Assembly: GCA_054600435.1 (NCBI GenBank)
Contig: BAAIJX010000056.1
Span: forward strand, 1 to 64,000
Length of the DNA stretch: 64,000 nucleotides
Direction: 5' to 3'
Source: Neophaeotheca triangularis
Lineage: Eukaryota
Shown here: piece by piece, positions 46-62,157 of the stretch
How the letters are laid out: every line of letters begins with the position of its first letter
Numbering within the stretch: the stretch's first letter is position 1
The notes under the pieces: model-generated
The model's database searches: none
What the model was told of the DNA's origin: nothing
Seen by the model: only the letters and a program-made list of their open reading frames with translations
Program-made: the position numbers and the translations under genes

Positions 46-949
46 CGGTGGGGGGGGGCGGGAAGGAGGGCGGGCAGTCTCACAGTCGGAAGAAAGGCCT
101 CAGGCTGGAGCTGGAGCTGGAGCAGCCTGGGAAGGGAAGCAACGACTGGAGATATTAGGGGCACGTGCACAAAAGCTTGGCCTGGCCATATAATATACCT
201 ACGGGTTCCACCTCCTATCTCTCTCAGCCTCCTTGACGACATGAAACTACATAGGTATTTACTCGTCCACACCCCCGACGCTTCCAACCTTCACACAATA
301 ACGTACTCTACTATTCTAGTCATAACCAATTCCGAAGCTGAGGAAGAGCCCGCTCCGGACTAGTTGCAACACAGCACTGTCGTCCTGGAACACGGCCGGG
401 ATTATTGGAACCGTGACTAGCTGGCCGGGTACCTCCAGTAGGTGTCTATACTTTTTCGGCAGCATATTGGACTTGACTGGTCAGGCACTGGCAACAATTC
501 CAAGATTCATCGAGCTCAAGGTCCATGAGACCTACAGCAATCGAAGTGGCCCGAGCCAAAGCCGTCAGACAGGGCTTCTTTCGCTGTGTACGAGTCGACA
601 GAATCACGCGCCTTCGAGCCTTTGCAATAAGATGGTCTTTGTCCCGATGCTGAACTCACGACAATGGTATTGTAGGCAGTGGCTCATGGCTTTGTCGGTT
701 GCTCGAGACATTCTTGCATTTCTTTCACACCATTACAAAGACAAAAATGGTTGAGTGATACGGCTTTATCACGTCTTCATCATGCATCGACTTTCAAAGA
801 GACACTCTACCATATATACCATTCAAGTCCTCGCGATCTACCTAGCTTCCTTTCCTCTCCCACTCCACGCATCCGGTGACTAGCAGGCCTATTCACCACC
901 CTAACAACAAAACTCAAAACCCAAACTCCAAACTCCAGATCCACCTACC

Positions 950-1801
950 ATGTCATCCACCAACACCGGCACCGACATGCCCGACGCTCCAGTCGCCGCA
1001 CCATCAACCCCACCCAACCCGGTTCCCGCCCGGCCCACCGATTACACCACCCCTGAAGCCCCCTCTTTCAGCCCCCTAACCCCCAACAACGAGGTGGCCC
1101 GCGCAACAGTTTCAACCCCACTCAACCCCGTCACTACCCGCCCAGCTGACTACACCACTCCCGAAGCTCCCTCCTTCAGCCCACTAACACCCATCCGCCG
1201 TGTGGGCGGCCCAACCGACAACCGCAGCCCCACAGCCCCGCATTCTACAGGCGACGCCCGCGTCGAAATCCGAGCGACCCTTCAACGCATGCGTCGTGCA
1301 CGCCTGCTTGGAAACAACGAAGCCATCCCCGAGCGTGAAGCCGGAATTGCAAACTCCATGCACGAGAGATTCCTCGCTCGTGCCCGCCAGCTCGAAGTCA
1401 ACGAAGGCACCACCTTTGTCCGAGCGACGCAACAGGCCGACTTGGACCTCCAGGCTCTTGCTTCCCCCGACTACGCTCCCGACTACGAAGCCGCACGCAT
1501 GCATTCCGTCCGTGACCGCATTTCCCTCTCGAACTGGGTGAGGATGCTGGGGCGGTGGCGGGTTGCGATGCTGGTTGAGCGGTTTCGGGGGTTGCAGCCG
1601 AGGGAAGAGAGGGGCCGACCGGAGAGGGTGAGCGAGCATTTGTGCGATATTGAGTGTATGCGCGAAATGGAACAGGACCAGGCTGAGGACGATGAGAGCG
1701 AGGCTCATGCGGACGACTGTGAGTGTGAGGAGTGCAAGGCTGAGGACGGACCTTCCCCCAGTGCCGGACGTCCGATGAAGAGGGTGAGATTTGCTGAGTA
1801 G
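950..1801 (+). CDS. hypothetical protein, Pro/Thr/Ser-rich with a duplicated motif and acidic Cys/His C-terminus
   Basis: 283-aa intronless ORF, ACCATG start context, fungal codon usage; family not recognised. Confidence 0.65.
   Translation: MSSTNTGTDMPDAPVAAPSTPPNPVPARPTDYTTPEAPSFSPLTPNNEVARATVSTPLNPVTTRPADYTTPEAPSFSPLTPIRRVGGPTDNRSPTAPHSTGDARVEIRATLQRMRRARLLGNNEAIPEREAGIANSMHERFLARARQLEVNEGTTFVRATQQADLDLQALASPDYAPDYEAARMHSVRDRISLSNWVRMLGRWRVAMLVERFRGLQPREERGRPERVSEHLCDIECMREMEQDQAEDDESEAHADDCECEECKAEDGPSPSAGRPMKRVRFAE
1004..1192 (+). repeat. internal direct repeat, 108-nt offset (STPxNPVxxRPxDYTTPEAPSFSPLTP x2)
   Basis: copies start at 1004 and 1112; many differences fall at third codon positions. 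Confidence 0.85.
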
Positions 1802-3174
1802 AGTGGAGTGCGAGTGGTGAGTATGAAGTGGAGAAGGTAAGTGGTAGGAGAGAAAAGAGTCGAGTGGTGCGCTGTGCTGTCAGAGAGGTAAGTCCCCTCC
1901 CCCCTGCACCCCCTGTTTTAATCCCCCCTGCCCTTTTTCTTTTTTAAGTTTTCTTTTGTTAGCGTATCCAAACCGTTTGCTTTCAGAATAGCTTTCCCTG
2001 TTCCACTACAAGTCCAAACATTATGACGCCAGTTTTTCCCCAATCCGCAGCCTTCCAGTGCGTTTCTTAACAGGTACGACCGGTGTTGTACATGTAAAAT
2101 CATCACAAGACTTCCTATAGGATGTGTTCCACATTACTTGCGCTTAGCCCAAGACAGATACCACTATAATTGTGATCCGGAAATCCCTAGAATGAGGGCG
2201 AGCAAGCTTTCAACTCTGCAATGTAAAGATGTCTTGATATCTCGATCAATTGGGAGAATCCCCGATGACAAACCTACGGTTCTATCTACGACTTGGGCGA
2301 AAATAAGCCAGTAGTAAAATAGAAACTACTCTTAGTGACAAGTTCATACGTTTAGACGCAAGCAAAGTCCAAATGTCACCTCCTGACATCCCGTTCCTTC
2401 CTTCCATCTATCGTTCCTTTCCTAGTAGCAACGACAAGAACATGGATCATTCAGCACTCCCCACGGCCTGCTTGCCTCGAACTGCCAACGCTCTAGTGGG
2501 TGGGCCTCACTCTGTGAGTCCACTCACATGCTGCTTAAGAAGATCCTAATGCAACGAAGATACTTGAAGCGCCCGGAGTCTTGGAGCGGACGCATTCCTA
2601 TGGTGAACAGATTTCAAAAATGAGCCAAAAACTTGAAGGATAAGTGGCGGAGGCTCAGTAGCTAGCTGAAGTAGAAGTGCAAGCCCGCTATCTTGGTCCC
2701 ATGCGATCTCTCTTTCCCTTTCGGCCGACTGCCAGATCGAGTCTGCATCTCGAGCATAGCAAAGCCAATGCATCCATATCGGCATGTGGTAGGGTCGTCT
2801 TCCCTAGATGCCATGCCTAGAGCTCGGAACCAGCTCTTTGATTTGTAGGGCATGAGTAGCGAGAGCCCCTGGTGCTGTCGTCTTTGTCGAGCATTTGTTT
2901 CCCTCGTCTCCGCAGCTCCACTGCCGTTTAACGTAGCGTATGGCTTGCGTATGGATCCTGCGCGGAAGCCGGAGGCTTTGCGGCTAGAGCGTTCCTTTGC
3001 CGAAGGGAGCTGTACAATGCCACAACCAGTCGCAAAAAGGTAGGAGAAGGTTGGGTGGCAAGGAAGAAGGATCGCAGCCGGCATTCATTCGCTGTTTTAT
3101 GACCGCCAACATCGCTTCGGGCCCGGTTTCTTCAAGTTCCTGGTCGCTGCTCACCCTTCTCGCTCGGTCACGGC

Positions 3175-4284
3175 TCAGGCTTCTCCCCTCCCTAAAGTCC
3201 GCACACAGCCATAGCAAAGTCTAGATCTCGCGGGCGCGCTAGCGTCACTGAGCGGGAGACTGCACAGTTCGCACACCGTTTCGATCGCCTCTACATCCCG
3301 CTGCACATCGCCCCTCCTCAACTCCAACTTCCCCGCGGTCTTTACAACATTACTAACGATACTAGGAAAGTCCCTCTCGACGCCCTCGAAATACTTGACC
3401 ATCAACTCATCAATCGTCGAATTCCTCGTACTAACCGCCGGCTTAGGCGCTTCCTCCAAAACCACTTCTCGCAGCAAAGGTTCCACAAAGTCGCCGAAAC
3501 TCTCAATCTCCTTGCCGAGCAAGTCGCGCATCGGGTAGTAGCTCGGCGGCGCGGAAGGGTTTGTAGAGGCGGCGTCGGCGACGTACCATGGCAGCGAGCC
3601 GCCCCGGCCCTTGGCGGTTTCCGCTAGAGTGCGTTGGGCTAGGCGGGTGGTGCTGCTGCCCCAGAGGATGGCTTCCGTGGAGTGAGAGTGGGCGAGGTGG
3701 GTTAGGAGGTTCGTGAGGAGGAGGGAGAGGATATCGGATTTTGAGGTTGGGGATTTGAGAGAGTCGATGAGAGTGGTGAGGTGAGTTTCTGGGGAGGGGT
3801 CGGGAGTGGGAGGTTGCAGGGCCAGGGGGAGGGAGGCCGTGGGGATGACGGAGGGGTCGAAGAGGGCGGAGAGCGGGTGGGTGGCGTAGTCGTGTTGCGG
3901 GTAGCGGAGTTTGAGCTTTTCGAGGCAGGTTTGCGTTCTAGCTTGGTTCGAGTATGTCGGGAGGGAAATGTGCACGACTAGCAGTTTGAAGCCCGTACGC
4001 CCTGTGTTTTCGATTTGCCGCTGGAGGTGCTGGCTCAGGATGTGCAGGAGTGCGACTGAGGAGGCGCCGAGGGAGAGCGGGAGGAGCAGGACACGTTCTT
4101 TGTCCGGAGTGCTGTGGCGGACGCGAAATGTTTCCATGCGTTTGACGACTTTGGTGTGGACGTATTTCTTGAAGCAGTCGCTACAGAGGGGTTCTGTGCG
4201 GACGGTGATGGCTATGGAGTTGGTTTGGCATCGTCGGCAGAGGGAGGGGTCCAAAGGGATGGCTTGATCCCGTCGGCCTGGCAT
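3175..4284 (-). CDS. NCS2: cytoplasmic tRNA 2-thiolation protein 2 (Ncs2/Ctu2)
   Basis: N-terminal CxxC..LCxxCF, degenerate PP-loop LPLSLGASS, LAETAKGRG, YPMRDL, FPSIVSNVVKTAGKL, C-terminal CxxC..LCYGC; first ATG at 4284. Confidence 0.9.
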   Translation of the reverse strand: MPGRRDQAIPLDPSLCRRCQTNSIAITVRTEPLCSDCFKKYVHTKVVKRMETFRVRHSTPDKERVLLLPLSLGASSVALLHILSQHLQRQIENTGRTGFKLLVVHISLPTYSNQARTQTCLEKLKLRYPQHDYATHPLSALFDPSVIPTASLPLALQPPTPDPSPETHLTTLIDSLKSPTSKSDILSLLLTNLLTHLAHSHSTEAILWGSSTTRLAQRTLAETAKGRGGSLPWYVADAASTNPSAPPSYYPMRDLLGKEIESFGDFVEPLLREVVLEEAPKPAVSTRNSTIDELMVKYFEGVERDFPSIVSNVVKTAGKLELRRGDVQRDVEAIETVCELCSLPLSDASAPARSRLCYGCVRTLGRGEA

Positions 4285-5172
4285 TTTGTGGCTGAAATCT
4301 GGTGGCAATGCTGGAGACTGGATACCCAAGTATGCTTGGGCAAGAAGGTAAAGAGGGAATGTTGTTGGAATGGCTGGTCCGAGCTTTCTCGAAAAGTGAA
4401 TGTTCAGGTTGCAGTCTTAGATAAGCCGTCGATGATTGGCCCGTGATGCCGAGGCGGGGGTGAAGCCTTTGGTAAGCTTGGCATGGGCGAAGCATGGTCT
4501 AATTAATCTCTACGCTCTGCTAAGACTTGGAGCTGATGCGCCTTATCGGCCTCTATAATTAAGGTATATAGTACACCTCTGTCTTGATCAATACCGACAC
4601 TACCTGGGCATTTATCGGGGGCCAAGACTTGTCAACATATATACTAGCCCCTTCTACAGATATCCTCTAACCCCCCCATTCCCCGGAAATCGGCCGTCTT
4701 TTCCGAAAGTCAAGCAGAGCTAGTCGTTTTGATCGGGAAGAGGTGGAGCAAAGGAACAGATGCTATTCAAGCCCTTCCGTCACTTTCGTACAACCAACCA
4801 ACTAACTACACCTCAAAAAACAATCCCAACTATCACCGCAACCTTCTTCTTCTCCACGACTTTCTCCCTCGTTTGGGCAACTATCAGAGCCTCCTGTTCA
4901 CCCTTCTCAATTTCTTCCATCAATCGCCCCTGCCAACTAGGGCAAGACGGAGCGGCGACTGGGCGCGACGACATACCCTGCATGCGGCGACACATCCATC
5001 CCTCAGCCAACCCCGACACCCTGCCGCCAACTCTACCCCGAACGTGAACCCGGTCGAGTCCTAACGATTCCGATTGAAGAGAGGTGAAAAGAGCGATTGC
5101 ATCCACAGGGCCAAGGCTTGATCGGACGTATATCAAAGACACAAACACTCTTCAAGAGACAGGCAGTTCAAC

Positions 5173-14780: not shown

Positions 14781-15282
14781 ATTTGCTGAATTTGCATCGG
14801 CATCGCAAAAATACCCTTCCTTGCAGGGCTTTCAGGTCCAGAATGGGGTTTGAATCGAGATGAGACGTGGTGGGATTGGTGATGGTGCGGTGGAATGTAA
14901 TTATGGTTGATAGTGTGCAACGGATTACGATTTGATGGTTTCGAGCCTTTTAAAGTAACAGTCGTTGTAATCGGGAATTGCTTCAAGTACCTGTAATGAT
15001 TGTATGGAAAGGCAACGCAGCTTCATCTGGAAGGCATGTCGTGATTCGTAAGGTTGTTTTTGAGGCCGCCCTATGAAGTGACGAGACGATCAGATTTGGT
15101 GACATCAGGCCAGCTTCGGGAGGTGCTTTACTCAGCAACCTGACCTAGGTAGTTAACTGACCCGGCACTGACAAACGGGCTCACCTCGCAACTTGAACAT
15201 TCACAATCTACCCTCCTCAATACTACCTTGACCATCCACCCCTACCGACTCATCCCACAAACCGCTCAACACCAACCCCGGC

Positions 15283-16515: not shown

Positions 16516-16561
16516 GCCATCTACTCCTCCCGCCTGTTCCACACCAACACTACTTGGGCAA

Positions 16562-17200
16562 CTAACCTTGACCACTTCCCAGCACAACCTGGCCCTCCTC
16601 CCATTCCCGACTCTGCTTCTCGCCCAACCACTGCGGCTGCAGACGGTCAATCATCTCCTCAATCTGCCATCCCCTCCCTCTCCCTCCACATACTCCGACT
16701 CCCCCAGCAACCCCGAATCCGTCAAACCCCCAGCAATCACCCTCGCGACGCCCTCGGCCGATTTCGCCGACAACCCAGCTTTGTCTCACGCCCCCTCAAT
16801 CCCATCCACCGACCGGCATCCGTTTCGTCCAAGGACAAACCGCATTCGTCCTAAAATCATACGATTCCGCGGCCAACGGTCTCCGCAACGTCTTCATCAA
16901 CCCCAATATCCCCGCTTTCGCAGCCGCATACACGCTCAACCCCGGCGACTCCTTGAACCCGGCGACACTGCTGACGAATGTGAGACTCCTGTCCGTATCC
17001 GGCCTCTCACTCTGCCTGTGCCTATGCCTAGGGAGCCGCCGGTTACGAGGATGACTTTGTTTTGGAAGTGCTGAGATAGAAGAGGAAAGGGGATGGAAGC
17101 TGGACATTGTTCGAGTGGTTATTGCTTCGGGTGTCAGGGAAGAGATGATGTGATTTGGGATCGGTTTGGAAGATGAGGTGCTGTTTCGTGAGGGGAAAGG
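16562..17200 (-). pseudogene. decayed short-chain dehydrogenase/reductase
   Basis: FVSSVAG..YAAAK..NAVCPW (catalytic S and YxxxK) in ORF 16796-17107; C-terminus (WQIEEMIDRLQPQWLG) in another frame; no GxxxGxG or credible start; 5' boundary approximate. Confidence 0.7.
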
Positions 17201-36051: not shown

Positions 36052-36186
36052 CTAAAGATATGAATAAAGCGAGCACTTCAGCGTGAAAGTGTCCCATCGA
36101 GCCTGAAAAAGAGCAAGAGTCGTATTGCAAGCTCTGAGTCCCTCAAGAATTTCGCATCAATTCGTCAAAGTACCTACTTACCCACT

Positions 36187-47236: not shown

Positions 47237-48795
47237 ATGCGATCTCTATCAAAAATCGCGGCTCTGCTGTCGCCCAGCCTGGCGCTGTTGGCTTCAAGCA
47301 GGGCCGTCGCTCTTCCTGCTCAGCCAGCTCGTGTTGACAAGAGGCAACAAGCCTCCTGCGCACTCCCGACATCCTACGAGTGGTCCGACTATGGAGGACC
47401 TCTCGCGCAACCTGCCAATGGATGGGTATCGATCAAGGACTGGACTGCCAGTACGACCATGGATGGCCAGCACATTGTCTATGGCACATTCTTCGGAGAC
47501 TGGTGGGGTTCGTTTGGTAAGTCTCAACCACGAGCATCCTCGATAAGCTACCGAGAGCGGTGCTCCTAACCATCACCTAATAGCGTTCCCGCCTTTCAAC
47601 AGCTTCGACGAACTGGCGACCGCTCCTCAGACGCCTCAAGCTGAAGCCGCGGTGGCACCTACCTTGTTTTACTTTGAGCCCAAGCAAATCTGGGTCCTAG
47701 CCTACCAATGGGCACTGCACCCCTTCTCCTACAAGACCTCCAATGACCCCACGGACCCCAACGGCTGGGGGCCGGAAGAGGTTCTCTTCTCTGGCAGCAT
47801 CACGGACTCCGAGACCGATGTCATCGACCAGACCTTGATCGGCGACGACCAAAACATGTACTTGTTCTTCGCCGGCGACAATGGCAGAATCTACCGCTCG
47901 AGCATGCCCCTCGACAATTTCCCCTCCAGCTTCGGCACCGAATACGAAATCATCCTCGAGGACACTCTGCAGAACCTCTTCGAGGCCGTACAAGTCTACA
48001 CCGTCGAGGGCCAGAACCAATACCTCATGATTGTCGAAGCCATCGGTCTGGAGGGCAGGTACTTCCGCTCCTTCACCGCCGACCGTCTCGACGGCGAATG
48101 GACTCTCCAAGCCGGTGACGAGAACGCACCTTTCGCGGGCAAAGCCAACAGCGGCGCGACCTGGACCAACGACATCTCCCACGGCGACCTGATCAAGTCG
48201 TCCAACGACCAAACGATGGTGAGTTCCCCCCTAACCTCCTCTCTCCTTTGATCCCACTAACCCCCAACCCTCCCAGTCCATCGACCCCTGCAACCTGCAA
48301 TTCCTCTACCAAGGCCAAGACCCCAGCAACCCGGACCTGCACTACGACGACTGGCCCTACCTCCCAGGTCTGCTGACGCTCCAAAACGCACCCCCGCTCG
48401 ACAACACGGCCGCCGCTCCTCCCGCGCCCGAAACCCCAATCGACACCAACCTCAACGCCGCCGTGCCCGACCAAGACATCCACACCGACCCAACAGCCAT
48501 CGCCTTCAACGCCGACGGCAGCGTCGCCGAAGACGCGCCCCTGGCTCCCGTGACGGGCGAGGAGACCGAGCAGCAAGCGGACGAGGAGGAGTTCAACTAC
48601 TCCATCGCCACTGAGCCCAACACTGCCGCTGCCACGCCTGTGGTTGATGCTAGCGGTGATGAGGCCGGGTGCACTCCCATGCGTGTTACTATTACTACTT
48701 CGACGCCCGAGCCTACTGTTGCTGCTGCTGCGGGTGACGAGGAGTGCACGCCCGCTACGGTTACTATTACTAGGGGTGCTGAGCCGACTTTTTAA
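47237..48795 (+). CDS. GH62 alpha-L-arabinofuranosidase with acidic C-terminal extension
   Basis: signal + [57 protein letters not shown]; introns 47517-47583 and 48219-48276. Confidence 0.93.
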
Positions 48796-49203
48796 ACGAG
48801 CGGGTCGTGATGGTCAAGTGAGAGGGGTGGCGCTTGTTCTTTGAGGGGAGGAGGTTGCTAAGACGCTGGGGAATGGACGCGGTGAGAGTTGCGGATAGCT
48901 GTGTTTGTGTATTATCTTCGTAGTTTGCTTGACTGTCCGTATTGGTTTGTAAAGCTTGTCGCTGTAGGTTGGATTTGCGATATCTGTTACGACATGTTGA
49001 ACTGTGTTTGGTCAGATGGAAGCGATGAGCCCCTTCCCATCGTCTTAACGCGATGGTTGGCAGATGCCGTTCAAGGCTATCGAATACAGCGTAATGGTCG
49101 TTCTCCGCCTCGTAAGAAGGCAGCGCGGCTGATCATGCCGTTCAACCTACCAAAGCAACGATTGGCAGCAAAGCCCTCATCATGACCCAAGATACACAGC
49201 CTA

Positions 49204-50127
49204 TCAAGAATCCTGCTGCTCCTTCGATCTCTGTGACGGCGGCGTCGAAGCCTGTTGATCCTCCACCCTCCCCTTCTCCGCATTCCCACCCTCCATACTC
49301 CCCTCCAGCACAAGCGTCGCAAACCCGCCAACCTTCCCCTCCAACCCCTTAAACTCCTTAGCGCCGCTAACCTCGCCACAAACCTCCCGAACCCTCTCCA
49401 AAACCCCCCTGCACTCCTCCAACGTCGCCTTGCGCCCCTTCTTCTTAGCCGCAAAAACAACCTCCACCCTCCTCCCCTCGGCCAAAAACTCCCTAACTTT
49501 GCCCAACCGGTGCCCCAAATCATTCCCGTCAATGGCCCAATTCAACTCCAAAGTCTTCATGCTCTCGGCACGAGATTTGGCCGTAGCCCCACCACCCGCC
49601 GCTTTGGCGAGTTGCTTGCGCTTCTTGTCCTTCTCGTAGACATCCTTCTTGCTGACGATTTTGCAGACGGCGGGGGAGAGGCGGTCCGTGGGATCTGCGG
49701 GTTCGGCCACTTGGACGAGACGGTGGGTTTTGCGGTCGATGGAGCCTAGGACGTCGTAGGGGGTTCGGGGCGGTAGGGGTTCTTCCGTGACTGGGTCGAC
49801 GGGGAACTTGTTCGTCGAGGGGTCGATGATGTGGATGAGTTGGGCGCTGATTTCGTCGTCGATGCGGTGTTTGCGCTTTTCCGGTTCGCGGTATTTCGCT
49901 GCTAGGGGTCGTGGGGTGGTTGTGAAGGGCCGGTGGGTGGGAGCTTGGTGGGGAGTGGGGGGTTTGGGGAGGTGTCTGATGGGGAGGCGTGGGGGGGTTG
50001 GTGCGATGAAGACGCTGTAGAGGGCTTGCGCTGTTGTTCGCGCGGATCTGCTGTGTAGAGGAGGCATGGCGAGGGTGGTGTTGGGTATCAATTGGGGTGG
50101 GACATACCTCCCAGGCCAACGAGGCAT
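49204..50127 (-). CDS. AIM23: mitochondrial translation initiation factor IF3 (Aim23-like)
   Basis: presequence, IDDEI, PAVCKIV, KTLELNWAIDGNDLGHRL..FLAEGRRVEV; start could be ATG 50067. Confidence 0.8.
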   Translation of the reverse strand: MPRWPGRYVPPQLIPNTTLAMPPLHSRSARTTAQALYSVFIAPTPPRLPIRHLPKPPTPHQAPTHRPFTTTPRPLAAKYREPEKRKHRIDDEISAQLIHIIDPSTNKFPVDPVTEEPLPPRTPYDVLGSIDRKTHRLVQVAEPADPTDRLSPAVCKIVSKKDVYEKDKKRKQLAKAAGGGATAKSRAESMKTLELNWAIDGNDLGHRLGKVREFLAEGRRVEVVFAAKKKGRKATLEECRGVLERVREVCGEVSGAKEFKGLEGKVGGFATLVLEGSMEGGNAEKGRVEDQQASTPPSQRSKEQQDS

Positions 50128-50316
50128 GTGGTCTGGACTGAGGTAAGCGAGCTGTATACCTTAGGGTAAGGGTTTTGGTAGGCTTCCATCTTTTCTGTCA
50201 GCAACGTCAACTCTTCCTAGGTCTGTCTCTTCCAAGACGCAGTGAAAACGTTCCATTCGGCACGAAAGATATAACGCTTGAATACGTACAGCCTTGTTTG
50301 TTCCAACCTCACCGCG

Positions 50317-50783
50317 ATGGCTATCGATACGCTGCCGATGACGGTCGAGTTCTCGTACGTCCTTTACTCATTTCACGTACTACACCCAAAGGACAACGGA
50401 GCTAATATCGACATCAGCGGTGGACTGGAGATGCTCTTCTCGGACCAAAGAAAACACAAAATTCATCTGCCTCTCAAAACAAACGACGGCCAACCTCCGG
50501 ACGTTGCGTTTTTGATCGATTATTTGTGCAACAACCTCATGAAAGACCCTCGCAAGGACATGTTTGTGCTTGACGACGCCGTGTACGCCGCCCCGGACAT
50601 TGAGAAAAGACTTCAAGAAGACGACGACGCTCTAATCGATTGAGAAGACGCTGACATTTGTACAGACGACCGGGCATTCTCGTTCTAATCAACGACGCCG
50701 ATTGGGAGCTCGAGGGTGAAGACCAGTATGTCATTCAGCCTGGCGACAACATCGTCTTCGTTTCCACCTTACACGGCGGGTGA
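50317..50783 (+). CDS. URM1: ubiquitin-related modifier 1
   Basis: [37 protein letters not shown]; introns 50355-50417 and 50583-50665. Confidence 0.96.
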
Positions 50784-51233: not shown

Positions 51234-53046
51234 ATGAAAATGGCAGGCAACAACGAAACCGACGACCGCTCGCCCCCAATCTACGACGTCCTCATCATAG
51301 GAGCCGGACCAAGCGGACTAGCAGTAGCATCAAGACTCCGCGAACAGCACCCTTCAGCCCTCTTCACCGACGATGAGCATGGCCGCTACCATTGGATCAA
51401 CAAGCATTCTAACCAGGCATCTATCCGAAAAACGCGTGACAACCGCGTCAAAGCAGCCGATCCTTCCAAAAACGATTGCGGAGGCATCTCTACGCTCGTC
51501 TTGGACAGCTCCGGCAATGACTGGATGACCAAGTGGAATTCTCATTTCAAGACTTTCAACATCCAGCACCTACGAAGCCCCATGTTCTTTCACCCAGACC
51601 CGAGTGATCGAGATGCTCTGCTAGCGTATGCTCGAGAGACTGGGAGGGAAGATGAATGCGTCGAGATTGCCGGCTGCGTAGGTAAAGAAGTCAGCAAGCA
51701 CAAGAAGAAGAAACGAAAAATGGGGCAGTTGTAAGTTACCACCATCACGGCCAATCCAAACCCTCCCCTGCCCTAACAAGCCCCCCAGTTCCCAACCAGT
51801 AAACGCTATCGACGAACGCGACCGCAAAGACTACTACACTCCCTCGGCGGGCCTCTTCAACGACTTCTGCCGCGCCTGTGCCGACCGCTACCACCTCAGC
51901 CACAACCACATCAAACACGAAACCGTGCTAGACATAGCCTACAACACGACGCCCAACGACCCGACAACCCCCGAACCCGACCGGCCCCTCTTCAAAATCC
52001 ACACAACCACCAGCACCCACCTCTCCCGCACCGTAGTCCTAGCAATCGGCGCCGGCGCCCCCATCATCCCGCCTCCCTTCCCCGCCTCGCACCCCGCCGC
52101 AACCCACGCCATGAACCTCACCCCCACCACGCCAATCCCACCCCCCCACCTCGCATCCCCCAACCCAACAACCCCCCAAACCATCCTAATCCTCGGCGGC
52201 GGCCTCACCAGCGCCCAACTCGCCGACCGCATCCTAACCCTCACCCGCACCCTCACCGTTCACCTCCTGACCCGCTCCCACCTCAAATCCAAACCCTTCG
52301 ACACCGATCTCGCCTGGCTGGGCAAATACCGCAACACGGCCAAAGCGGCTTTCTGGTCCGCCGACAGCGACGCCGAACGCTTGGCTCTGGCCAGGGAGGC
52401 CCGGGACGGGGGCAGCGTGCCGCCGGTCTGGAAGCGGAAGCTGCGGGGCTGGGAGCGCAGCGGCCGGTTGCGGGTGCACGCGAACACGACGGTGCGGGAA
52501 GCGCGCTGGGACGAGGGGGTGGGGAAGTGGGATGTTGTCGCCGAGCCTGCGGTGGCGGGGTTGCGGTTGACGGCGTCGTCGGCGGCGGCTGCTGGGAGTG
52601 GAGCTGGTGAGAGTCAAGCTGGTGGCGGCGAAGGCGGCATCGACCACATCTACCATGCCACGGGAACCAACACGGCTCTGGGCGAGTACGAGTTCCTGCG
52701 AACCCTGCTCCGGGAGCAGCCGATCGACAGTCTAGAGGGTTTACCAATCTTGACCGAGGACCTGGCGTGGAAGGAGGGAGTGCCGTTGTTTGTGACTGGG
52801 AAGTTGGCGATGTTGAGGTTGGGGCCCGGGGCGGGGAATTTGGAGGGTGCGAGGGTGGGGGCTGAGAGGGTGGTTTGGGGTTTGAGGGATTTTTTGGACG
52901 GGGTGGGGAAAGGGGACGAGCTGGGGGTGGAGAGGAGGGATAGTGGGGTTGACGGCGTGGGGGAGGAGGACAAGGAGCAGAGGTTGTATGAGTATACTGT
53001 TGGGTTGGGGAATCGGTTTGCTGGGTTGGGGGTTGAAGGGGAGTGA
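51234..53046 (+). CDS. FAD/NAD(P)-dependent oxidoreductase (flavin monooxygenase-like)
   Basis: IIGAGPSG, HLRSPMFFHPDP, second ILGGGLTSAQ, LGPGAGNLEGAR; intron 51731-51788 joins the two ORFs. Confidence 0.85.
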
Positions 53047-53419
53047 GTAGTTTGGGTGATCGGGGGGTTTCGTGTTGCTTTTCGAGGACTTGGGGTGGGT
53101 AGAGGTGCTTGGATGGATATAGTCTGTCGCTTGCGTTTGTTATGGTACCTTTAACGTCTTGGTCACTTTTGTGGTGTGAAGCAAAATGCTCGTGTGGTCG
53201 GGTTTTTGAGTGTATAGGCAATTGCAGCGGATTAGTAGTAAGCTACGGTGTATCCAAGCCACTACAACTTTTCCAAACTGTCTAGCATACCCTCCGGGGC
53301 AAGTCGATGGTCGGCTCAATCTCTCGTGGCCCATTCGCTTGACCGGCAGAAAGAGCAAGGCAACGTTCTATGAACGGCTCCACGGTCACCATTCCTACTC
53401 CAAGCGTACTGTTCGCACA

Positions 53420-55267
53420 TCACCAGCCGGCGAACCCAGCACCCCCACCCTCATCATGCTTCCGCTCGTCAGCCGCAACCCAAACCTCCTCTGGCTGCAC
53501 AGCTGCCTCCCTCTGCTGCCCAAGACCCCACCCGGAAGCGGTAACGACACTCTCCTCCACTACCCCGGGCCTTGCATCACCACTCCCACTCCCACTCCCA
53601 CCCTCCCCATCAACCGCAACACCCTTGCCGGCTCCACCACCACTCCGACCCTCCCCCTCAAATCCCCCAGCCAAAAACCTGCCCAAACTCCACTCCCCCT
53701 TCCCCCTCTCGACCCCGCTGCTCCCCTCAAAACAGCCACGAGCATCACAAACCACAACCCCGGCCTGAACAAAAACAGTCCTCAACCTCCACCTCGTGCT
53801 CGGCACGCTACCGGGTTCGTGCACGCAAACGACAACATCGGTCTGCACTTCCACCGTGATTCTGGCGCCTTTGCAGTTTTTGGGAACGAGGGCGAGTTGG
53901 TGCGAGTAGATGCGCGAGCGGGCTTGCTTGTCTAGGCCGTAGAGGAGGCAGCCGCGGGCGTAGGAGGAGGGGGTTGTTGGGGTGGGGAGGAGGAGGGGTT
54001 GGTGGGTGTTTTTGGCCGGGAGGAGGGTGTGGGCGCGGAGGAGGGCGGGGGCGAGTCTGGGGTAGAGGCGGAGGGGGTCGGTCTGGGTCGGGGTGTCAGT
54101 GGGTGGGTGGGTTTGGATTGGTGGGGGGTAAAGGTTGTAAAACTGAAGTTTGATTTTAGGGGGAGGCGGGGCTTGTTCTTGACTGACTTTGTTGATTGTC
54201 GTGGCCACAGTACCTGGTAGCATCAAGCTGTCGAAGACGAAGACGGGTTTAAAGACTTCTACGTCCCATTTTCCTCCCGGGTCGAGGTTGTAGCCCTGTG
54301 GGCGGTTGAGTAGGACGTTGCGGTAGGGTTGTGGGATGTAGGAGGCGTAGGCAGGGTCGTCGTTCAAGAAGCTAGCGTGGATGTAGGCGTCGTCTGGGCG
54401 TTTGGGTTGTTGGGAGAGACGAGGGGTGGGGCTTTGGAACCGCTCGCCTAGGTCGATGCCGAGGCCGATGATGGAGTTGTCGTTGGAACGTCTTGGAGCA
54501 TTGGTATGTCTCTCGAAATGTTGGTCGTAGATGGGGTTATAATTGGGTTTAGGAGTTGAGCCTTTGTCGATGTTGGTCAGCTCGGTTTCCCACCAACCTT
54601 GTCTTTGCATTGGAGTGGCAAAGTCTGCCATTGCTCGTAGGACGTCCGGAGTAGGGTTGTTGATGTAGATTTTGGGCCGGCCGTTGACGACGTGGAGCTC
54701 ACATGAAGATATGTGCATTCGTTCAAAGGGTCTGGCTGGTTCCTGTGGTTTCTCCTGGCGGGTCGGTAAGTTTTGACGGGTTTTGTGCTGTTGAAAGGAG
54801 GTTGTTAGATTACGGGTTTGGCTTGTGAAGGGAGGCTGGCGAATGTGTGTTGGAGTAGGCCGGGTGGATATTGAAAGATTTTGAACGAGTGATGGTTGCT
54901 CTGTCCCAGGGGTACGCTGCTTGGATTTTTTTTGACGTGCAATCATCACATGTGGAGGCTGTGGGTTCGTTGCTGAAGTTGCAGACTGTGGCAATGGCTT
55001 TTTCCCATGATGCACGTGACTCTCCCTGTGGCGAGGAAGAGAAGAGGCGTGTGATTCAATCTTGCTTCGATACAGAAGCAAGTCAATGCGTGCTTCGATG
55101 GCGGCTAGATTTCGGATAGTAGTCTGCTCGTACAGAGCGGGAGGTGAAAGGGTGATGTCGAGACGAGGGGGAAGTTGAGGCTGCTGAGCGCTTCTTGCTT
55201 TTTTCTCGTAGGCTGGCCCTGGTGGTGTCATTCGCGGCATCTTTTGGTGGTGATGCTGAGAGGCCAT
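53420..55267 (-). CDS. hypothetical protein with possible degenerate AIG2/GGCT-like C-terminal domain
   Basis: 615-codon ORF; probable in-frame intron 54083-54187; PVFVFDSLMLP..LAPALL..RGCLLYGL. Confidence 0.6.
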   Translation of the reverse strand: MASQHHHQKMPRMTPPGPAYEKKARSAQQPQLPPRLDITLSPPALYEQTTIRNLAAIEARIDLLLYRSKIESHASSLPRHRESHVHHGKKPLPQSATSATNPQPPHVMIARQKKSKQRTPGTEQPSLVQNLSISTRPTPTHIRQPPFTSQTRNLTTSFQQHKTRQNLPTRQEKPQEPARPFERMHISSCELHVVNGRPKIYINNPTPDVLRAMADFATPMQRQGWWETELTNIDKGSTPKPNYNPIYDQHFERHTNAPRRSNDNSIIGLGIDLGERFQSPTPRLSQQPKRPDDAYIHASFLNDDPAYASYIPQPYRNVLLNRPQGYNLDPGGKWDVEVFKPVFVFDSLMLPGTVATTINKVSQEQAPPPPKIKLQFYNLYPPPIQTHPPTDTPTQTDPLRLYPRLAPALLRAHTLLPAKNTHQPLLLPTPTTPSSYARGCLLYGLDKQARSRIYSHQLALVPKNCKGARITVEVQTDVVVCVHEPGSVPSTRWRLRTVFVQAGVVVCDARGCFEGSSGVERGKGEWSLGRFLAGGFEGEGRSGGGAGKGVAVDGEGGSGSGSGDARPGVVEESVVTASGWGLGQQREAAVQPEEVWVAADERKHDEGGGAGFAGW

Positions 55268-56021
55268 TGTAATGTAATACCGCTCCGTGGGTGGCCCAGG
55301 TGGTCAGTACAATACTAACTAGGGTGTGTAACCGTTGACTTGAACTTTGCTGAGAGGCAGAAGAGGCTTGTGATGTTGACGTTGCAGCAGGCTCACTACC
55401 TAAAGTCATGTGTTAGATACTACCTCACCTACCTAGGTGCCTACTAGGTAATGTAAGATTCAGATCGTGGACGCAATCAGCCATGATTCATTTCAATAAA
55501 GCAAGGGAGTCTCTATTCCAAATCGCCATGGGGTGTGGTAGTACACTGCAAGATAGCATAGCAGATACATAGTAGGTGGTAAGGTAGCTCAGGTAGGTAA
55601 AGTAAGGTAAGGAACAGCGCCACCATGTACCCATTGAGCGAGCGACATCAATCATCACGATAGTGTCACGTCGGCACGTGAAGACTGCCTCAGGTATCAA
55701 TTAATACTAGGGGGTAGACCCGACCGTAGATAACCTTGGAAGGTTTACCATACCTAGATAGGTACTCTCGTACTGTAGAAGTGAAGTCGGGGATTCACGA
55801 AGCTTCCACCGCGAGTCTCTGCGCGCTTCCAATTGCCTCCAGCTGTCTTAGTCAGTCCTGACGAGGTCGGCTGCTGCCTGCCCTGCCCTCCACTGCCCTT
55901 TATCGCTTTCGATCATCAACGTCACGGGCTTTGCTATTCCGAACTTCACCCGGGGGTCTGCAAGCTCACCTCCGAAGCCTACCTTAACACCTACACCACA
56001 TCATCTTCGACACCTCCTCCT

Positions 56022-56048
56022 CCTACTACTACTACTACTACAACTACT
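56022..56048 (+). repeat. (CTA)n microsatellite in the pyrimidine-rich leader of CDC48
   Basis: CTACTACTACTACTACTACAACTACT. Confidence 0.7.
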
Positions 56049-56233
56049 TACTCCCCATCAACACTCTCTCCCTTATCCTCTCCATCCACCTTTTCTCTTG
56101 AAGACTCCGTCAGTCAGCTCCACCACAGCTCTACTGACGTTAAAACCACCTCACTCCTTCCACATCGCCACTTGTCGAAGACCCGACACTTGACTGAAGA
56201 CTCGCCTTCAAACACCGGTACCACCCCTCAAAC

Positions 56234-58897
<2,664 letters not shown>

Positions 58898-59593
58898 ACG
58901 CTTACCCACAACGTCATTGCACGAAACGACCTCGTCCGCCCTTCCGGCATCTCTGCCGTCGATCTAGCTGCTCTACCGGCTTTTAGCTCGACAAACCTCC
59001 TCGACCATTTGGCGTTTCCGGTCCTCTTTGCTACCATGACGGGGGAAAACGCAACAAGAAGCGGGCGTGAATTTAATCCACAGAACTGAAGGAGAAGAGA
59101 GCATAGAGAGGTTTTCTTTTCTTTTTGGAGTCTTCGAGATTAGTTTAGCTTGAGCTACCTTAGCTTGACTGGTATCGAGGGCTTTTGTAACAGTAGTAAA
59201 ATGTTTCAATGTGCTTTTTTGTCAATTGCTGATGTTGTTTGTTGCTGTATTTGAGGTGTGTGTGTGGCTCGTCTTGAGTGTCGTTGATGCTTAGGGATCT
59301 TGCGTGATGGTTGTGCGGTATTTGAGCTGGGTGTCTTTGTTTTTTCACATGTCTCGCCGTGTCTGACGGGATCGTGGAGGTGTACGAGAGGTTTCTCTTA
59401 TTTGCGATAACTGTTGCTGTTGCATTGTTAGGTGTTTGTTAAGGGCATATTCTATAAACGGCTGTTATATAAATGTGCCTGCAAAGGTACAGGGCACGTG
59501 CCACTTCGGCGGCGAACTTTCATCTCGACGTCTCAGAGAGCTTCAGCACAGAATTACCCTGAACATCACCCTTACCAACCACACCCACCAACC

Positions 59594-60631
59594 ATGGCAT
59601 CAAGACGAGCGGCCATACCGGCCAAACACCTCTTCAATGGCTTCAAAACCTCCCAAAGCCTCCCCCTCCGAACAGCCACACGCAACCTGACGACAACCAC
59701 CACCACTGAACCGAGCGCAACCCTCTCCCAAACCCACGCCGACGCCCATCTAACCTCCACCCCCACCGACCCCATCCTCCACGACAACATCTCGCAACTC
59801 AAAACCCAAACAACGACCCCCCTCCGCCCGCACCTAACCCCACAACCAGCAAACCCCTTCCTAACAACCGCAACCTGCACCCTCCACGCCTTCCCCACCC
59901 TCGAACCCGTCGCCTTCACAAGCTACCCCAGCACGCACCTCCTCCTGCCGCTGCGCCGCGACCTCCTCCACCGCGCCATCATCTACGAAGGCGACATGAC
60001 GCGCCAGGGCACGGCGTCGACGAAATGGCGCAGCGAGGTGCACGGCTCGAACCGCAAAATCCGACCCCAAAAGGGCACGGGCGCCGCGAGGTTGGGCAAT
60101 AAGAAGAGTCCGATGCTCAAAGGGGGTGGGCAGGCTTTTGGGCCGAAACCGCGGGATTTTTCCACGGGTTTGCCTAGGAAGGTTTATGATTTGGCTTTTA
60201 GGACTGCGTTGTCTTGGAGGTGGAGGACGGGGGGGTTGGTGGTTGTGGAGGGGGAGTTGGGGTTGGGTGGGGAGGCTGCAGTCGGGGAGTTTGCGCGGGA
60301 GCGGTTTGTGAGGGAGGTTTTGGGGTGGTTTGGGTTGGGCAAGGAGGGGGGGAGGAGTCTTTTCGTCGGGGCTGAGAGGAGGGAGGCGTTGTTTGGGGTT
60401 TTGGAGGCGGGGAGGTTTGGGGCTAGGGGGTTGGCGGTCGCGGATGTGGATGTCAAAGATTTGTTGGAGGGCGGCAGAGTTGTGGTTGAGAGGGAGGCTT
60501 TGGAGTGGTTGTTGAGGGAGCACGAGGGGGATTTGCGCGATAGGGAGCGGCTTGTGCATTTTAGAAAGGGAAAGGGGGTTCTGGCGAATGAGGTTCAGAT
60601 GTTGCGGGGGAGGAGGTTTGATGTTGTTTAA
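59594..60631 (+). CDS. YML6: mitochondrial ribosomal protein uL4m
   Basis: LRRDLLHRA, RQGTASTKWRSEVHGS..PQKGTG.AR.G...SP...GGG..FGPKPRDF; ACCATGG at 59594. Confidence 0.92.
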   Translation: MASRRAAIPAKHLFNGFKTSQSLPLRTATRNLTTTTTTEPSATLSQTHADAHLTSTPTDPILHDNISQLKTQTTTPLRPHLTPQPANPFLTTATCTLHAFPTLEPVAFTSYPSTHLLLPLRRDLLHRAIIYEGDMTRQGTASTKWRSEVHGSNRKIRPQKGTGAARLGNKKSPMLKGGGQAFGPKPRDFSTGLPRKVYDLAFRTALSWRWRTGGLVVVEGELGLGGEAAVGEFARERFVREVLGWFGLGKEGGRSLFVGAERREALFGVLEAGRFGARGLAVADVDVKDLLEGGRVVVEREALEWLLREHEGDLRDRERLVHFRKGKGVLANEVQMLRGRRFDVV

Positions 60632-61239
60632 GGGGAGATGGCAGGGTTGTAGATGTTGGGCTAGGCTGGCTGTAAGATGGTGTACTAACTATACTACATA
60701 GAGAAGAAGATTTTGTACAATGCATTGTAGAGATGGAATCTACAATTCTTTTCTTTTCCTTTCTCCAGACACGCGGTACCGGTCCAGGAGCGCGGCGAGT
60801 ATACGACTCTCCAAAGAAAGCAAAACAAGTCCATCTTCCCTCCCCTTCCCCTCCTGAAAAAAGAAAGAAAAAGAAAAAAGCAGAAACCCTACACTGACCA
60901 GCAACAGCAGCAGCAAGAACCAACCAACCGACCAAGTTTGCCATTCCCACCCCATTACTCTGCGAGAAATACGCTAACGAGCTTACAGGAGAACTCCTTC
61001 TTCTCCCACGAGCCAAAAGAGAGAAACCTCCCGCTTGTTACGATCACATTGCCAGACCTTTGAAGAAAACAAGGAAAAGCTGATCCTGTGACGTGGTCCA
61101 AGGGCAACGGCAACGGCAACGAGTCTTGGGAAGCGTGAGTGCGGGTGGGTGGACGGGGCGGTTGAGGGTTGTTGTTTTTCTGGATGGAGGGTGGGGAAAG
61201 GGGGAGATTGGTTGATCTTTTTTTTTTTTGGTTTGTTGT

Positions 61240-61276
61240 GCTGCCGCTGCTGCTGCTGCTGCTGCTGCTACTGCTG
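61240..61276. repeat. (GCT)n trinucleotide tract next to a poly-T run
   Basis: GCTGCCGCTGCTGCTGCTGCTGCTGCTGCTACTGCTG. Confidence 0.8.
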
Positions 61277-62157
61277 GTTGATGATTGATGGTTGATGTTC
61301 GGGTATAGCGTGGCTGCTTTATGGGATCAGGGCGGGTTTTTGGGCGGTCGCGGCTGGGGGGCTTTTGTTTGGTTCACTTGTGTGATTGCGAGAAGAGGAG
61401 GGGCATCGTTGGTTTTTTCTTTTTCCCTTGCGGGGTTTAACGGTGGTGGGGAGTTGGAGGACTTTTCCTTTTTGGGGGCCGGGTGGGAGGAGGTTTAGCC
61501 GGGAGAGGGTCGGTCGGGGAATTGATGGGAAGGGATGAGGGATGCGGTTTGGGTTGTTGGTGGATAGAGTGGGTTGGGATATGGGATGACGAGGGTGACG
61601 CCTAAGGTGGTAAGTTGCTGGGAGAGGGTGGTTGCACTCGGGTTGGTGAAGAGTGATGGGTTGGGTTTGAGGGTTTTAGGTGCTTCGATACTGGAGGTGC
61701 TATGGGCTTGTACTTTACTGAGCATTTATCATGTACTGCGATGAGGAAAGAGTGGTCGTGAAGGGGTTCCCTAGCTTGATGTTCGAAGTGGTGGTGCAAA
61801 TGGAATCCTCGTTGAAATAGCTACAAGATGTGCTTTACTTGTCATCTGGGAGACCTTAATTCGACGGGAATCTTGTTCGTGGAGAGATCGGTTGAATTCT
61901 CAAGGTTCATCCTAGCGATTAAGACTCTTAGGTACTCCCTCTGGTAGTGAGCCTCTGGGTATTTGTGCCTTACATGTCAGGCTCTTACGGTATCGGGTGA
62001 CGTCTTGTCACCTCATTCCATCGGCTATTCCCGCAATTATCCGATTCCGAGTCGTTCCCTCTGAGCTTCGACTTCAGAGAGAGCTCCCAATGGCATATTT
62101 CAGTCCTGCATAAACAACTGAAACAGCTCTGACCTCCCCTATTGCATACCGTCAACC

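Follow-up and report, generated by a model that had tools for sequence, protein, structure and literature searches.

The analysed window is a 64-kb stretch of Neophaeotheca triangularis DNA, which was segmented on the + strand with a 3-state HMM into C/A-rich (M), G/T-rich (K) and neutral sequence. The M state made up 12.8% of the window and the K state 22.6%. Seventeen M blocks were followed by a K block, giving M+K units of ∼0.6–2 kb in length. All block coordinates below come from the HMM, and those over CAF17/IBA57 and CDC48 were also read from the sequence.

The first unit (803–1893; M 803–1248, K 1535–1893) lies over an ORF at 950–1801 (+) with no Pfam family, which displayed p3 GC skews of −0.76, −0.67 and +0.05. 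The second (3288–4487; M 3288–3532, K 3533–4487) covers the CTU2/NCS2 gene (−), which in coding sense is C/A-rich over its 5′ 955 nt and G/T-rich over its 3′ 245 nt. Over CAF17/IBA57 (+; unit 15130–16516), the M block (15130–15563) begins ∼150 nt 5′ of the start codon, and the end of the K block (15564–16516) coincides with the stop codon. The next unit (16517–17244; M 16517–17016, K 17017–17244) occupies the 3′ part of a short-chain-dehydrogenase-like gene (−) that is convergent with CAF17. A Zn(2)Cys(6) factor gene (+) of 3 kb was neutral outside the unit at its 3′ end (21518–22312; M 21518–21870, K 21999–22312). Three units were located between 25607 and 30047, inside and flanking the ORF of a DHX57-like helicase (25720–29892, −): M 25607–25969 with K 25970–26376, M 27313–27883 with K 27884–28545, and M 28546–29314 with K 29557–30047. 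This helicase is a single 1390-codon ORF with three skew cycles, and the G-to-C switch at 28545 inside it falls where the RWD domain begins.

Further along, a unit at 31555–32167 (M 31555–31872, K 31873–32167) has no gene assigned to it, and a unit at 38184–39384 (M 38184–38605, K 38606–39384) covers an SBF-like transporter gene (RCH1-like, +). Units were also located in the 5′ part of the ORF 42005–43294 (+) (41983–42532; M 41983–42156, K 42157–42532), over the ORF 43839–44603 (+) (43739–44687; M 43739–43993, K 44327–44687) and 3′ of a GH62 domain (48226–49029; M 48226–48513, K 48773–49029). The unit at 49260–50101 (M 49260–49600, K 49601–50101) lies over the ORF 49204–50127 (−), earlier named IF3, for which a Pfam search gave no match at E ≤ 1e-5. 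It is followed by units over a putative FAD-dependent oxidoreductase gene (+) (51739–53251; M 51739–52378, K 52379–53251) and over the ORF 53420–55267 (−) (53378–55384; M 53378–53855, K 53856–55384), the latter being C/A-rich in coding sense along its 5′ 1.5 kb. A non-coding M block (55965–56316, +) corresponds in CDC48 to the 5′ leader and the small first exon (start codon at 56235, intron 56289–56404); the leader skew was −0.60, while the coding sequence was neutral. The last unit (59557–60683; M 59557–59986, K 60122–60683) lies over the gene for the mitochondrial ribosomal protein uL4m (+).

Strength and Arrangement of the Skewed Blocks

Across the whole 64-kb stretch, the standard deviation of GC skew in 300-nt windows was 0.283 as compared to 0.077 in 20 shuffles. 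An absolute GC skew above 0.4 was observed in 17.0% of these windows and in none of the shuffled ones, and GC skew was correlated with T−A skew (r = 0.52). The preliminary description had reported switches from C/A-rich to G/T-rich sequence in six example pairs, all of which were borne out: the first block had a GC skew of −0.43 to −0.68 and a C+A content of 0.62–0.76, and the second a GC skew of +0.46 to +0.66 and a C+A content of 0.25–0.33. CDC48 and the fasciclin gene, said to mostly lack the pattern, indeed displayed a skew of only −0.05 (CDC48 coding sequence) and −0.16.

A K block followed within 350 nt of 17 of the 24 M blocks, against 7.2 ± 1.9 when the labels were permuted, and none of 5000 permutations reached 17 such pairs. 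The described succession of blocks is real; a fixed period is not, as the distances between the 17 M-to-K switch points ranged from ∼1 to 12 kb and tracked gene spacing. An assembly artefact was rejected, with contigs of another sample, X2, covering 14800–32200 with 410 differences (∼2.4%).

Gene Polarity

The pattern had been presented as strand-independent, occurring whichever strand the gene is on. This wording is uninformative given that a C-to-G switch is its own reverse complement: M-then-K reads identically on both strands, and gene strand therefore carries no information in the + strand view. Read in coding sense, the pattern follows gene polarity, a property reported for fungi before (PMC3315797), and genes run from a C/A-rich 5′ part to a G/T-rich 3′ part. 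Over the first 300 nt of coding sequence, 17 of 19 genes had a C skew (mean −0.27); over the final 300 nt, 15 of 19 had a G skew (mean +0.32). The 200-nt flanks showed the same polarity, the 5′ flank being C-skewed in 15/19 genes and the 3′ flank G-skewed in 13/19; the 3′ flank of CDC48 had no G skew.

The blocks, 0.25–1.5 kb in length, adjoin the gene ends. In short genes, the blocks from both ends meet in the middle, which results in the sharp C-to-G switch. Long genes are mostly neutral between their end blocks, and in Nha1, the Zn-cluster factor, CDC48 and Ybp2 (genes of 2–3.4 kb), blocks were seen near the ends only. Block parts beyond the coding sequences listed carried the same skew (M at −0.55 over 3065 nt; K at +0.46 over 5484 nt), the CDC48 5′ leader being one of them. 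No intron was identified inside a block in the 64-kb stretch.

Silent Sites and Protein Change

Silent sites are usually treated as locally uniform, whereas here codon choice depends on the position in the gene. The skew persisted at fourfold-degenerate sites and was strongest there, which agrees with the earlier statement that much of it sits at synonymous positions. In coding sense, the frequencies of A, C, G and T at fourfold sites were.176,.583,.130 and.112 in M blocks (n = 1442),.135,.406,.223 and.236 in neutral sequence (n = 3010), and.069,.157,.517 and.257 in K blocks (n = 1034), giving a GC skew of −0.64 in M and +0.53 in K. Two-fold codons followed the same trend, with C/(C+T) at.88,.68 and.27 and G/(A+G) at.26,.62 and.83 in M, neutral and K sequence, respectively. 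The third-position T−A skew flips along with the GC skew, in uL4m from −0.82 to +0.91; at fourfold sites, A exceeded T in M blocks and T was 3.7 times A in K blocks. On the G-rich strand of a block, the depleted bases are C and A, the largest gain is in G, and T is nearly unchanged, at fourfold and non-coding sites alike. Codons ending in A, which are non-optimal, are used in M blocks, and the conserved CDC48 has retained ordinary ones ending in C or T; this points away from translational selection.

Amino-acid usage differed between the blocks, Pro (12.2%) and Thr (10.9%) standing out in M blocks and Gly (15.2%), Glu (11.6%) and Val (10.9%) in K blocks. The helicase was compared with the consensus of its orthologs. 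In neutral columns, 28 of 334 residues differed. In M columns, 80 of 325 differed, 44 towards C and 15 towards G, and in K columns 74 of 379 differed, 51 towards G and 10 towards C. The 17 other helicase orthologs showed no such consistent direction and a much smaller block-specific excess; in some of them, the M-column rate was as much as roughly double the neutral one. The K-block direction of replacement recurred in RCH1 and uL4m, while the M-block replacements of uL4m were not towards C (11/64, mean +0.27). This demonstrates that the pressure pushed amino-acid replacements in the same direction as the skew. About one in five residues at otherwise conserved positions thus also depends on its place in the gene, and models of codon usage, dN/dS and phylogeny for this clade would be misled by such position dependence.

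The silent-site skew was further found to be coupled to the skew of residues that are at least 90% conserved among the 17 outgroup orthologs. The correlation along the helicase was r = 0.75 (n = 17), a value reached by none of 16 circular shifts, and the corresponding values were r = 0.65 (n = 7) for RCH1 and r = 0.90 (n = 6) for uL4m.

Occurrence in Relatives

The preliminary description had considered the skew much stronger than ordinary skew, and the amplitude was indeed ∼3 times that of 22 related Pezizomycotina loci. The p3 GC-skew difference between the last and first ORF third was +0.56 here, outside the range of −0.37 to +0.41 in the 22 related loci, and an absolute skew above 0.6 was observed in 31% of 60-codon windows as compared to 0–24%, mostly 0, in the relatives. 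The relative P0002 (79% identical) exhibited the same directional pattern in the helicase, and P0003 did so in part. In the changes common to this fungus and P0002, M columns moved 15 times towards C and never towards G, K columns 27 times towards G and 3 times towards C. The pressure therefore dates mainly from the ancestor that this fungus shares with its closest relative, and the effect is concentrated in one small Dothideomycete clade. Such a clade-specific onset invites the search for a changed repair or RNA-processing gene.

The 410 differences from X2 were symmetric (A>G 75, G>A 77; C>T 70, T>C 74), which indicates that the pattern is older than the strain divergence. They were also of an ordinary kind, with 296 transitions and only 38 C<->G changes, so that no large ongoing C-to-G flux is visible.

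Comparison with Known Strand Asymmetries

Replication-associated GC/keto skew switches sign at origins, as in bacteria and mammalian skew domains. Reviews of this skew are available (PMC3269012, PMC3269016). The present pattern resembles it in the joint enrichment of one strand in G and T and in a jump from negative to positive at a single point. It differs in having ∼1 switch per 4 kb, in following genes, in lying within ORFs and in alternating with equally sharp reverse switches. At silent sites, the amplitude comes closer to what animal mitochondrial DNA shows than to any known nuclear replication skew. The strand-coordinated mutation clusters of yeast and cancer known as kataegis switch strand at a resected break; there too, the damaged strand changes at a point, single-stranded DNA is damaged and C is lost on the exposed strand. 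Those clusters are, however, single somatic events, whereas the composition here is an evolutionary near-equilibrium common to strains 2.4% apart.

Transcription-associated strand asymmetry in mammals, reportedly described by Green in 2003 and by Polak and Arndt in 2008, has an amplitude about an order of magnitude below the one seen here. The mammalian transcription and R-loop asymmetries share with our blocks the G+T excess of the coding strand and a GC skew that is positive at 3′ ends, and they are proposed to stem from the non-template strand being exposed; in the genes studied here, in contrast, the sign is opposite along the 5′ part. R-loop-linked GC skew at mammalian gene ends is attributed to Ginno 2012/2013 in PMC4911931, in which budding yeast R-loops show no GC-skew association.

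The closest match is the skew of fungal genes, in which the coding strand is C-biased 5′ and G-biased 3′ (McLean & Tirosh 2011, PMC3315797). Fourfold sites, promoters and UTRs all carry that skew, amino-acid usage is shifted by it, its cause has not been established, and Pezizomycotina were in the data set (PMC3315797). The polarity, the fourfold sites, the flanks and the amino-acid shift all agree with what we observed, and the skew in the window is an extreme, block-like form of this gene-polar fungal skew. The known form is a genome-average gradient in which A−T skew is flat along genes and G and A rise together (PMC3315797). Here, near-saturated, sharp-edged blocks occur in single genes (fourfold G:C from ∼1:4.5 to 3.3:1), one ORF goes through three cycles, T increases together with G and A together with C, and the amplitude is ∼3 times that of related loci. 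This amplitude is large enough to make the long-unexplained fungal gradient testable, and the sharp boundaries within single genes can be compared with maps of transcript ends, RNA:DNA hybrids, single-stranded DNA or breaks.

Possible Origins of the Blocks

The earlier suggestion of a strand-asymmetric mutational process gives the best-fitting reading, although not in its replication-origin version. We tentatively favour, at somewhat less than even probability, a strand-asymmetric substitution pressure anchored at gene ends that depletes one strand of C and A and enriches it in G. Mutation pressure rather than codon selection would be the cause; a fixation bias fits the same facts as well as a mutation bias. 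CDC48, probably highly expressed yet free of skew in its coding sequence and not G-skewed in its 3′ flank, speaks against this reading, as do the M-block replacements of uL4m and the ordinary spectrum of the X2 differences. The affected strand would be the one running 5′ to 3′ towards the nearer gene end, namely the template strand near the gene start and the coding strand near the gene end. Transiently single-stranded DNA may be damaged there by deamination or base loss, after which C would be inserted opposite the damaged site. Such damage followed by C insertion would be expected to remove the two amino bases and to enrich G, and Rev1-type bypass in yeast is the basis for expecting C to be inserted.

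Transcription-linked exposure through R-loops, which favour a G-rich displaced strand, appears a slightly more likely source of this single-stranded DNA, with break resection in nucleosome-free gene flanks as the main alternative. R-loop exposure would be self-reinforcing, so that the sign of the silent-site skew would follow the skew already imposed by conserved residues. The R-loop version needs antisense transcription or a second process for the C-rich 5′ blocks. A more far-reaching form is speculative and, in our judgement, improbable: nuclear genes of this clade would carry bistable strand-composition domains, in which the locally G-richer strand is repeatedly exposed (for instance as the displaced strand of an R-loop), C and A turn into G via C insertion opposite damage, a small skew from protein constraints or gene ends is amplified near saturation, and the protein is then rewritten.

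As an explanation in its own right, 5′-to-3′ resection of meiotic or mitotic breaks in the nucleosome-free regions flanking genes seems unlikely. The 3′-ending strand would be exposed on each side, leaving G/T-rich sequence to the left and C/A-rich sequence to the right of every gene boundary, and the C-to-G switch would merely be where two tracts meet. A single process would then give both signs without antisense transcription, and every type of boundary has the expected polarity, the convergent pairs at 16516 and ∼53314 among them. Loss of C and A with gain of G on the exposed strand also fits, and the 0.25–1.5 kb blocks and neutral middles of long genes fit tract lengths, which in yeast are several hundred bases. 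However, resection does not predict the coupling of silent-site to conserved-residue skew, and a break would have to occur within the helicase ORF, at 28545. The G-to-C junctions are strongest where two 3′ ends converge, and in budding yeast such places make poor break sites. Exposure is also brief and rare, so that a skew of 0.6–0.8 would need a very mutagenic step.

Equally doubtful is selection on RNA or single-stranded DNA against local self-pairing, for which each stretch would keep to a nearly non-complementary alphabet: silent C/A would be avoided where the protein forces G-rich first and second positions, and G/T where it forces C-rich ones. The coupling of silent-site to protein-imposed skew is in its favour, as is the extension of the skew into leaders and trailers, which are parts of the mRNA. 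Segments of 120 nt from six skewed genes had a mean folding energy weaker by 4–10 kcal/mol than that of their synonymous shuffles (z +5.7 to +10.1, against +0.8 and +2.9 in two unskewed genes), but weaker local folding follows from the skew whatever its cause. A G/U alphabet still wobble-pairs and G/A would do better, the blocks use non-optimal codons while the conserved CDC48 has no blocks in its coding sequence, and the cost of keeping the RNA unfolded would be steep, with conserved residues replaced 2–3 times more often inside blocks than in the neutral remainder of the protein.

It is very improbable that replication origins, or some other bidirectional process, begin at each C-to-G switch inside genes. 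The negative-to-positive jump of GC and T−A skew has the polarity of an origin, and the preliminary description had drawn this analogy. Gene-independent switches at replicon spacing were not what we found: the 17 switches in 64 kb lie mostly within ORFs, the blocks follow gene polarity and hug gene ends, long genes lack a mid-gene switch, and the reverse G-to-C switches at gene boundaries are equally sharp. No motif common to the 11 direct M/K junctions was found.

Selected structure, whether a long hairpin between the C/A and G/T arms or G-rich arms kept as G-quadruplexes, can be given just as little credence, despite having been proposed as the alternative to mutation. Composition alone permits promiscuous C:G and A:U pairing, yet in all 10 units tested with arm-wise shuffles the complementarity of the M and K arms was no greater than composition gives (z −0.8 to +2.0). 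Against synonymous shuffles, whole-CDS folding energy showed no consistent decrease and varied across six genes (z from −4.0 to +2.9), even though uL4m and CAF17 folded more stably (z −4.0 and −2.0). The 90 G-quadruplex motifs matched the shuffled expectation (86 ± 17), and G runs were depleted (ratio to shuffles 0.90 for G3+ and 0.67 for G5+). Repeat-induced point mutation (RIP), which leaves AT-enriched, C-to-T mutated, duplicated DNA, was not supported, as the blocks are GC-richer than their surroundings (0.55–0.64) and sit in single-copy conserved genes, and CpG is at expectation (ratio 1.00).

Skew Blocks in the Window

The window (64 kb) was identified as nuclear DNA from a Dothideomycete fungus. 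The six pairs of blocks singled out in a preliminary description of the sequence were confirmed, with GC skew running from -0.43 to -0.68 in the first member of each pair and from +0.46 to +0.66 in the second, and skew was near zero in the fasciclin gene and across the coding sequence of CDC48, as had been stated. Across 300-nt windows, the standard deviation of GC skew was 0.283, against 0.077 in shuffled sequence, and 17% of windows exceeded an absolute value of 0.4, which no shuffled window did. GC skew and T-A skew were correlated (r = 0.52). A three-state hidden Markov model (HMM) assigned 24 C/A-rich blocks (M blocks on the forward strand; 12.8% of the window) and 32 G/T-rich blocks (K blocks; 22.6%). 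A K block followed within 350 nt for 17 of the 24 M blocks; permuted labels gave 7.2 ± 1.9, and none of 5000 permutations reached 17.

Contigs of another sample carrying the same organism label (X2) covered 14800-32200 with 410 differences (∼2.4%), and pieces of the window were also present in two other studies. The blocks therefore do not stem from misassembly; strains ∼2.4% apart have them in common. Among the pieces listed, the highest divergence from X2 was found in the 3′ flank of the helicase gene (19 differences in 317 nt); just 3′ of its stop codon, 84 nt (25635-25718) are replaced by 22 unrelated letters in X2.

Placement of the Blocks Relative to Genes

Pfam matches bore out most of the gene names proposed earlier (CTU2/NCS2, CAF17/IBA57, the SBF-like RCH1-type transporter, uL4m, CDC48 and fasciclin); the match for the 'FAD oxidoreductase' was weak, and the 'IF3' reading frame had none. 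The preliminary description held that the pattern appears whichever strand the gene is on. This is uninformative, since an M block followed by a K block is its own reverse complement. Read in the coding sense, genes have a C/A-rich start and a G/T-rich end: of 19 genes, 17 had C skew over the first 300 nt of coding sequence and 15 had G skew over the last 300 nt; C skew in the 5′ flank was seen in 15 and G skew in the 3′ flank in 13. A fixed period was likewise rejected, as the 17 switch points (M-to-K junctions) lie 1-12 kb apart and track gene spacing. In all other respects the description was right.

The M and K blocks abut in short genes (CAF17, uL4m, RCH1 and the 'IF3' reading frame), while in genes of 2-3.4 kb (Nha1, the Zn-cluster factor, CDC48 and Ybp2) they occur near the ends only and leave a neutral middle. 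This demonstrates an anchoring at gene ends and not at a mid-gene origin, and the proposal that the switches mark replication origins was rejected. An exception to end anchoring is the DHX57-like helicase, a 1390-codon reading frame on the reverse strand (25720-29892), which contains three M-to-K cycles and, where its RWD domain begins, one abrupt switch in the reverse direction (28545). No shared motif or palindrome was found at the switch points across 11 junction zones; four-base palindromes of G and C only occurred in 5-6 of the 11, about as often as GC-rich sequence gives.

Base Composition at Silent and Non-Coding Sites

The skew was maximal at silent sites. In the coding sense, the A/C/G/T frequencies at fourfold-degenerate sites were.176/.583/.130/.112 in M blocks,.135/.406/.223/.236 in neutral sequence and.069/.157/.517/.257 in K blocks. 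The choice among two-fold codons changes between blocks as well, and M blocks use GAA, AAA and CAA, which is not ordinary optimal-codon usage. Block portions lying beyond the listed coding sequences, of which the CDC48 leader is one example, carried the same skew (M, -0.55; K, +0.46). On the G-rich strand, coding and non-coding sequence behaved alike: C and A are scarcer, the largest gain is in G, and T shifts only slightly. No intron clearly inside a block was found in the window; that of CDC48 is on a block edge.

G at fourfold sites showed no dependence on neighbouring bases, the CpG ratio was 1.00 (the expected value) and runs of G were somewhat depleted. The effect is therefore regional and does not act through nearest neighbours or run extension. 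An origin by slippage was rejected on the grounds of the depleted runs and the neighbour-independent G, coupling to CpG avoidance on the CpG ratio, and selection for G-quadruplexes, raised in the preliminary description, on the depletion of G runs.

Comparison With Relatives and With the Known Fungal Bias

The window was compared with 22 Pezizomycotina loci holding a helicase ortholog at 48-67% identity. These relatives had lower standard deviations, both for GC skew (0.10-0.25) and, along the helicase, for third-position skew (0.16-0.39; window, 0.54). Over all long reading frames, the third-position skew of the last third minus that of the first was +0.56 in the window and -0.37 to +0.41 in the relatives, or about +0.15 to +0.2 in those with five or more reading frames. 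Windows of 60 codons beyond an absolute value of 0.6 made up 31% in the window and 0-24%, mostly 0, in the relatives. As the window lies above these ranges, its skew does not match ordinary skew in related Pezizomycotina, in agreement with the earlier impression that it is much stronger. The relatives do carry a weaker, locally autocorrelated skew, and the closest locus (L001) has one K block in common with the window. Two related metagenome loci that carry the helicase ortholog (L010 and L012) have strongly skewed silent-site blocks (down to -0.86) whose G-rich members gain A and not T, so that their axis is purine/pyrimidine and that of the window keto/amino.

In most fungi, genes are biased towards C at their 5′ end and towards G at their 3′ end, at fourfold sites as well as in UTRs and amino-acid usage; A-T skew is flat along genes, and G and A co-vary (McLean and Tirosh, 2011; PMC3315797). 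No cause was found in that study, which proposed mutational regimes differing between transcription phases, or C avoidance. The window agrees with this bias in polarity; it departs from it in amplitude, block shape, pairing of G with T, internal cycles and a clade-specific onset. In the literature searched, that outside subscription journals, no block-like, near-saturated or multi-cycle form was described in Pezizomycotina. The skew is thus real and strong, an unusual form of a known, so far unexplained fungal bias that is much stronger here.

Protein Change and Its Timing

The skew has measurable consequences for protein evolution. The helicase is 79% identical to that of the closest relative (P0002); Rachicladosporium comes next at 67%, then Oleoguttula, Cladosporium and Meristemomyces at 65-66%. 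It was compared with the consensus of 18 orthologs. Of 325 M-block columns, 80 differed from the consensus, with 44 changes directed towards C and 15 towards G; of 379 K-block columns, 74 differed, with 51 changes directed towards G and 10 towards C; among 334 neutral columns the number was 28. K blocks typically showed K>R, D>E, I>V and S>G; for M blocks, A>T, A>P and K>Q were typical. In a leave-one-out control, the other 17 orthologs presented no such consistent direction and a far smaller block-specific excess (in M columns, no more than roughly double the neutral rate). P0002 showed the pattern of the window, and Rachicladosporium did so partly. The K-block direction recurred in both RCH1 and uL4m, and that of the M blocks in RCH1 alone.

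Replacements common to the window and P0002 were 15 versus 0 in favour of C in M blocks and 27 versus 3 in favour of G in K blocks, and the trend was weaker after the two lineages split. Recent differences from X2 were symmetric and ordinary (296 of 410 were transitions); by block, 40 of 503 difference rows (14866-16603), a small sample, looked balanced. The blocks thus arose for the most part on the branch ancestral to a small clade and are at present near equilibrium.

Coupling to Conserved Residues and Possible Origin of the Skew

Silent-site skew in the window tracked the skew that conserved residues impose (those with at least 90% conservation across 17 outgroup orthologs). The helicase gave r = 0.75 (n = 17), or 0.70 with the gene ends left out, and none of 16 circular shifts reached the observed value; r was 0.65 in RCH1 (n = 7) and 0.90 in uL4m (n = 6). 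Over 198 windows of 50 codons, silent skew was flat (-0.1 to -0.2) where first- and second-position skew lay between -0.3 and +0.3, and averaged -0.59 below -0.3 and +0.71 above +0.5. The relation looks threshold-like, and any model must explain the coupling.

We tentatively favour a strand-asymmetric substitution pressure, which keeps the mutational reading of the preliminary description plausible, because the skew is strong at unconstrained sites and in non-coding parts, non-optimal codons are used, the conserved CDC48 coding sequence is free of it and directional replacements at conserved residues are in two- to three-fold excess. The affected strand would be the one running 5′ to 3′ towards the nearer gene end. 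In losing both amino bases and gaining G, the substitution pattern resembles the outcome expected if this strand were damaged while single-stranded and C were then placed opposite the lesion; in yeast, Rev1-type bypass inserts C opposite a damaged site. Two sources of strand exposure fit. R-loops could be self-reinforcing and would account for the coupling to protein-imposed skew, but would require antisense transcription for the 5′ blocks. Resection of breaks in the nucleosome-free DNA flanking genes would produce both skew signs through a single process and suits the block lengths, but leaves the coupling unexplained.

Selection against local self-pairing of RNA, which we consider unlikely, also predicts the coupling and is consistent with local folding being much weaker (z = +5.7 to +10.1). 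Yet the skew itself entails weaker folding, no matter how it arose, and the toll in protein changes seems too high. Selection for long-range C:G self-pairing, suggested earlier, was rejected as the arms showed no complementarity over and above that given by their composition, and global RNA stabilisation because folding was inconsistent across genes.

Other Features of the Window

A 6-kb stretch (32168-38183) has no skew blocks and contains a DUF6594 gene, a zinc-type alcohol dehydrogenase gene with C-rich third positions along its whole length, and unidentified sequence. A short-chain-dehydrogenase-like gene (16517-18032, reverse strand) looks fragmented, its GxxxGxG and YxxxK stretches lying in different frames with stops between, which may reflect several short introns or decay. 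The G-poor 5′ leader of CDC48 includes a short (TAC)n repeat (56027-56046). CTU2/NCS2 (3175-4329) and URM1 (50275-50640), both components of the tRNA thiolation pathway, lie 46 kb apart, probably by coincidence. The helicase gene adjoins an epoxide-hydrolase gene (24159-25406), and the Peltaster fructicola helicase ortholog (P0061), as listed, is a 1750-residue protein that also has epoxide-hydrolase domains, pointing either to synteny having been conserved or to a merged gene model for that record.
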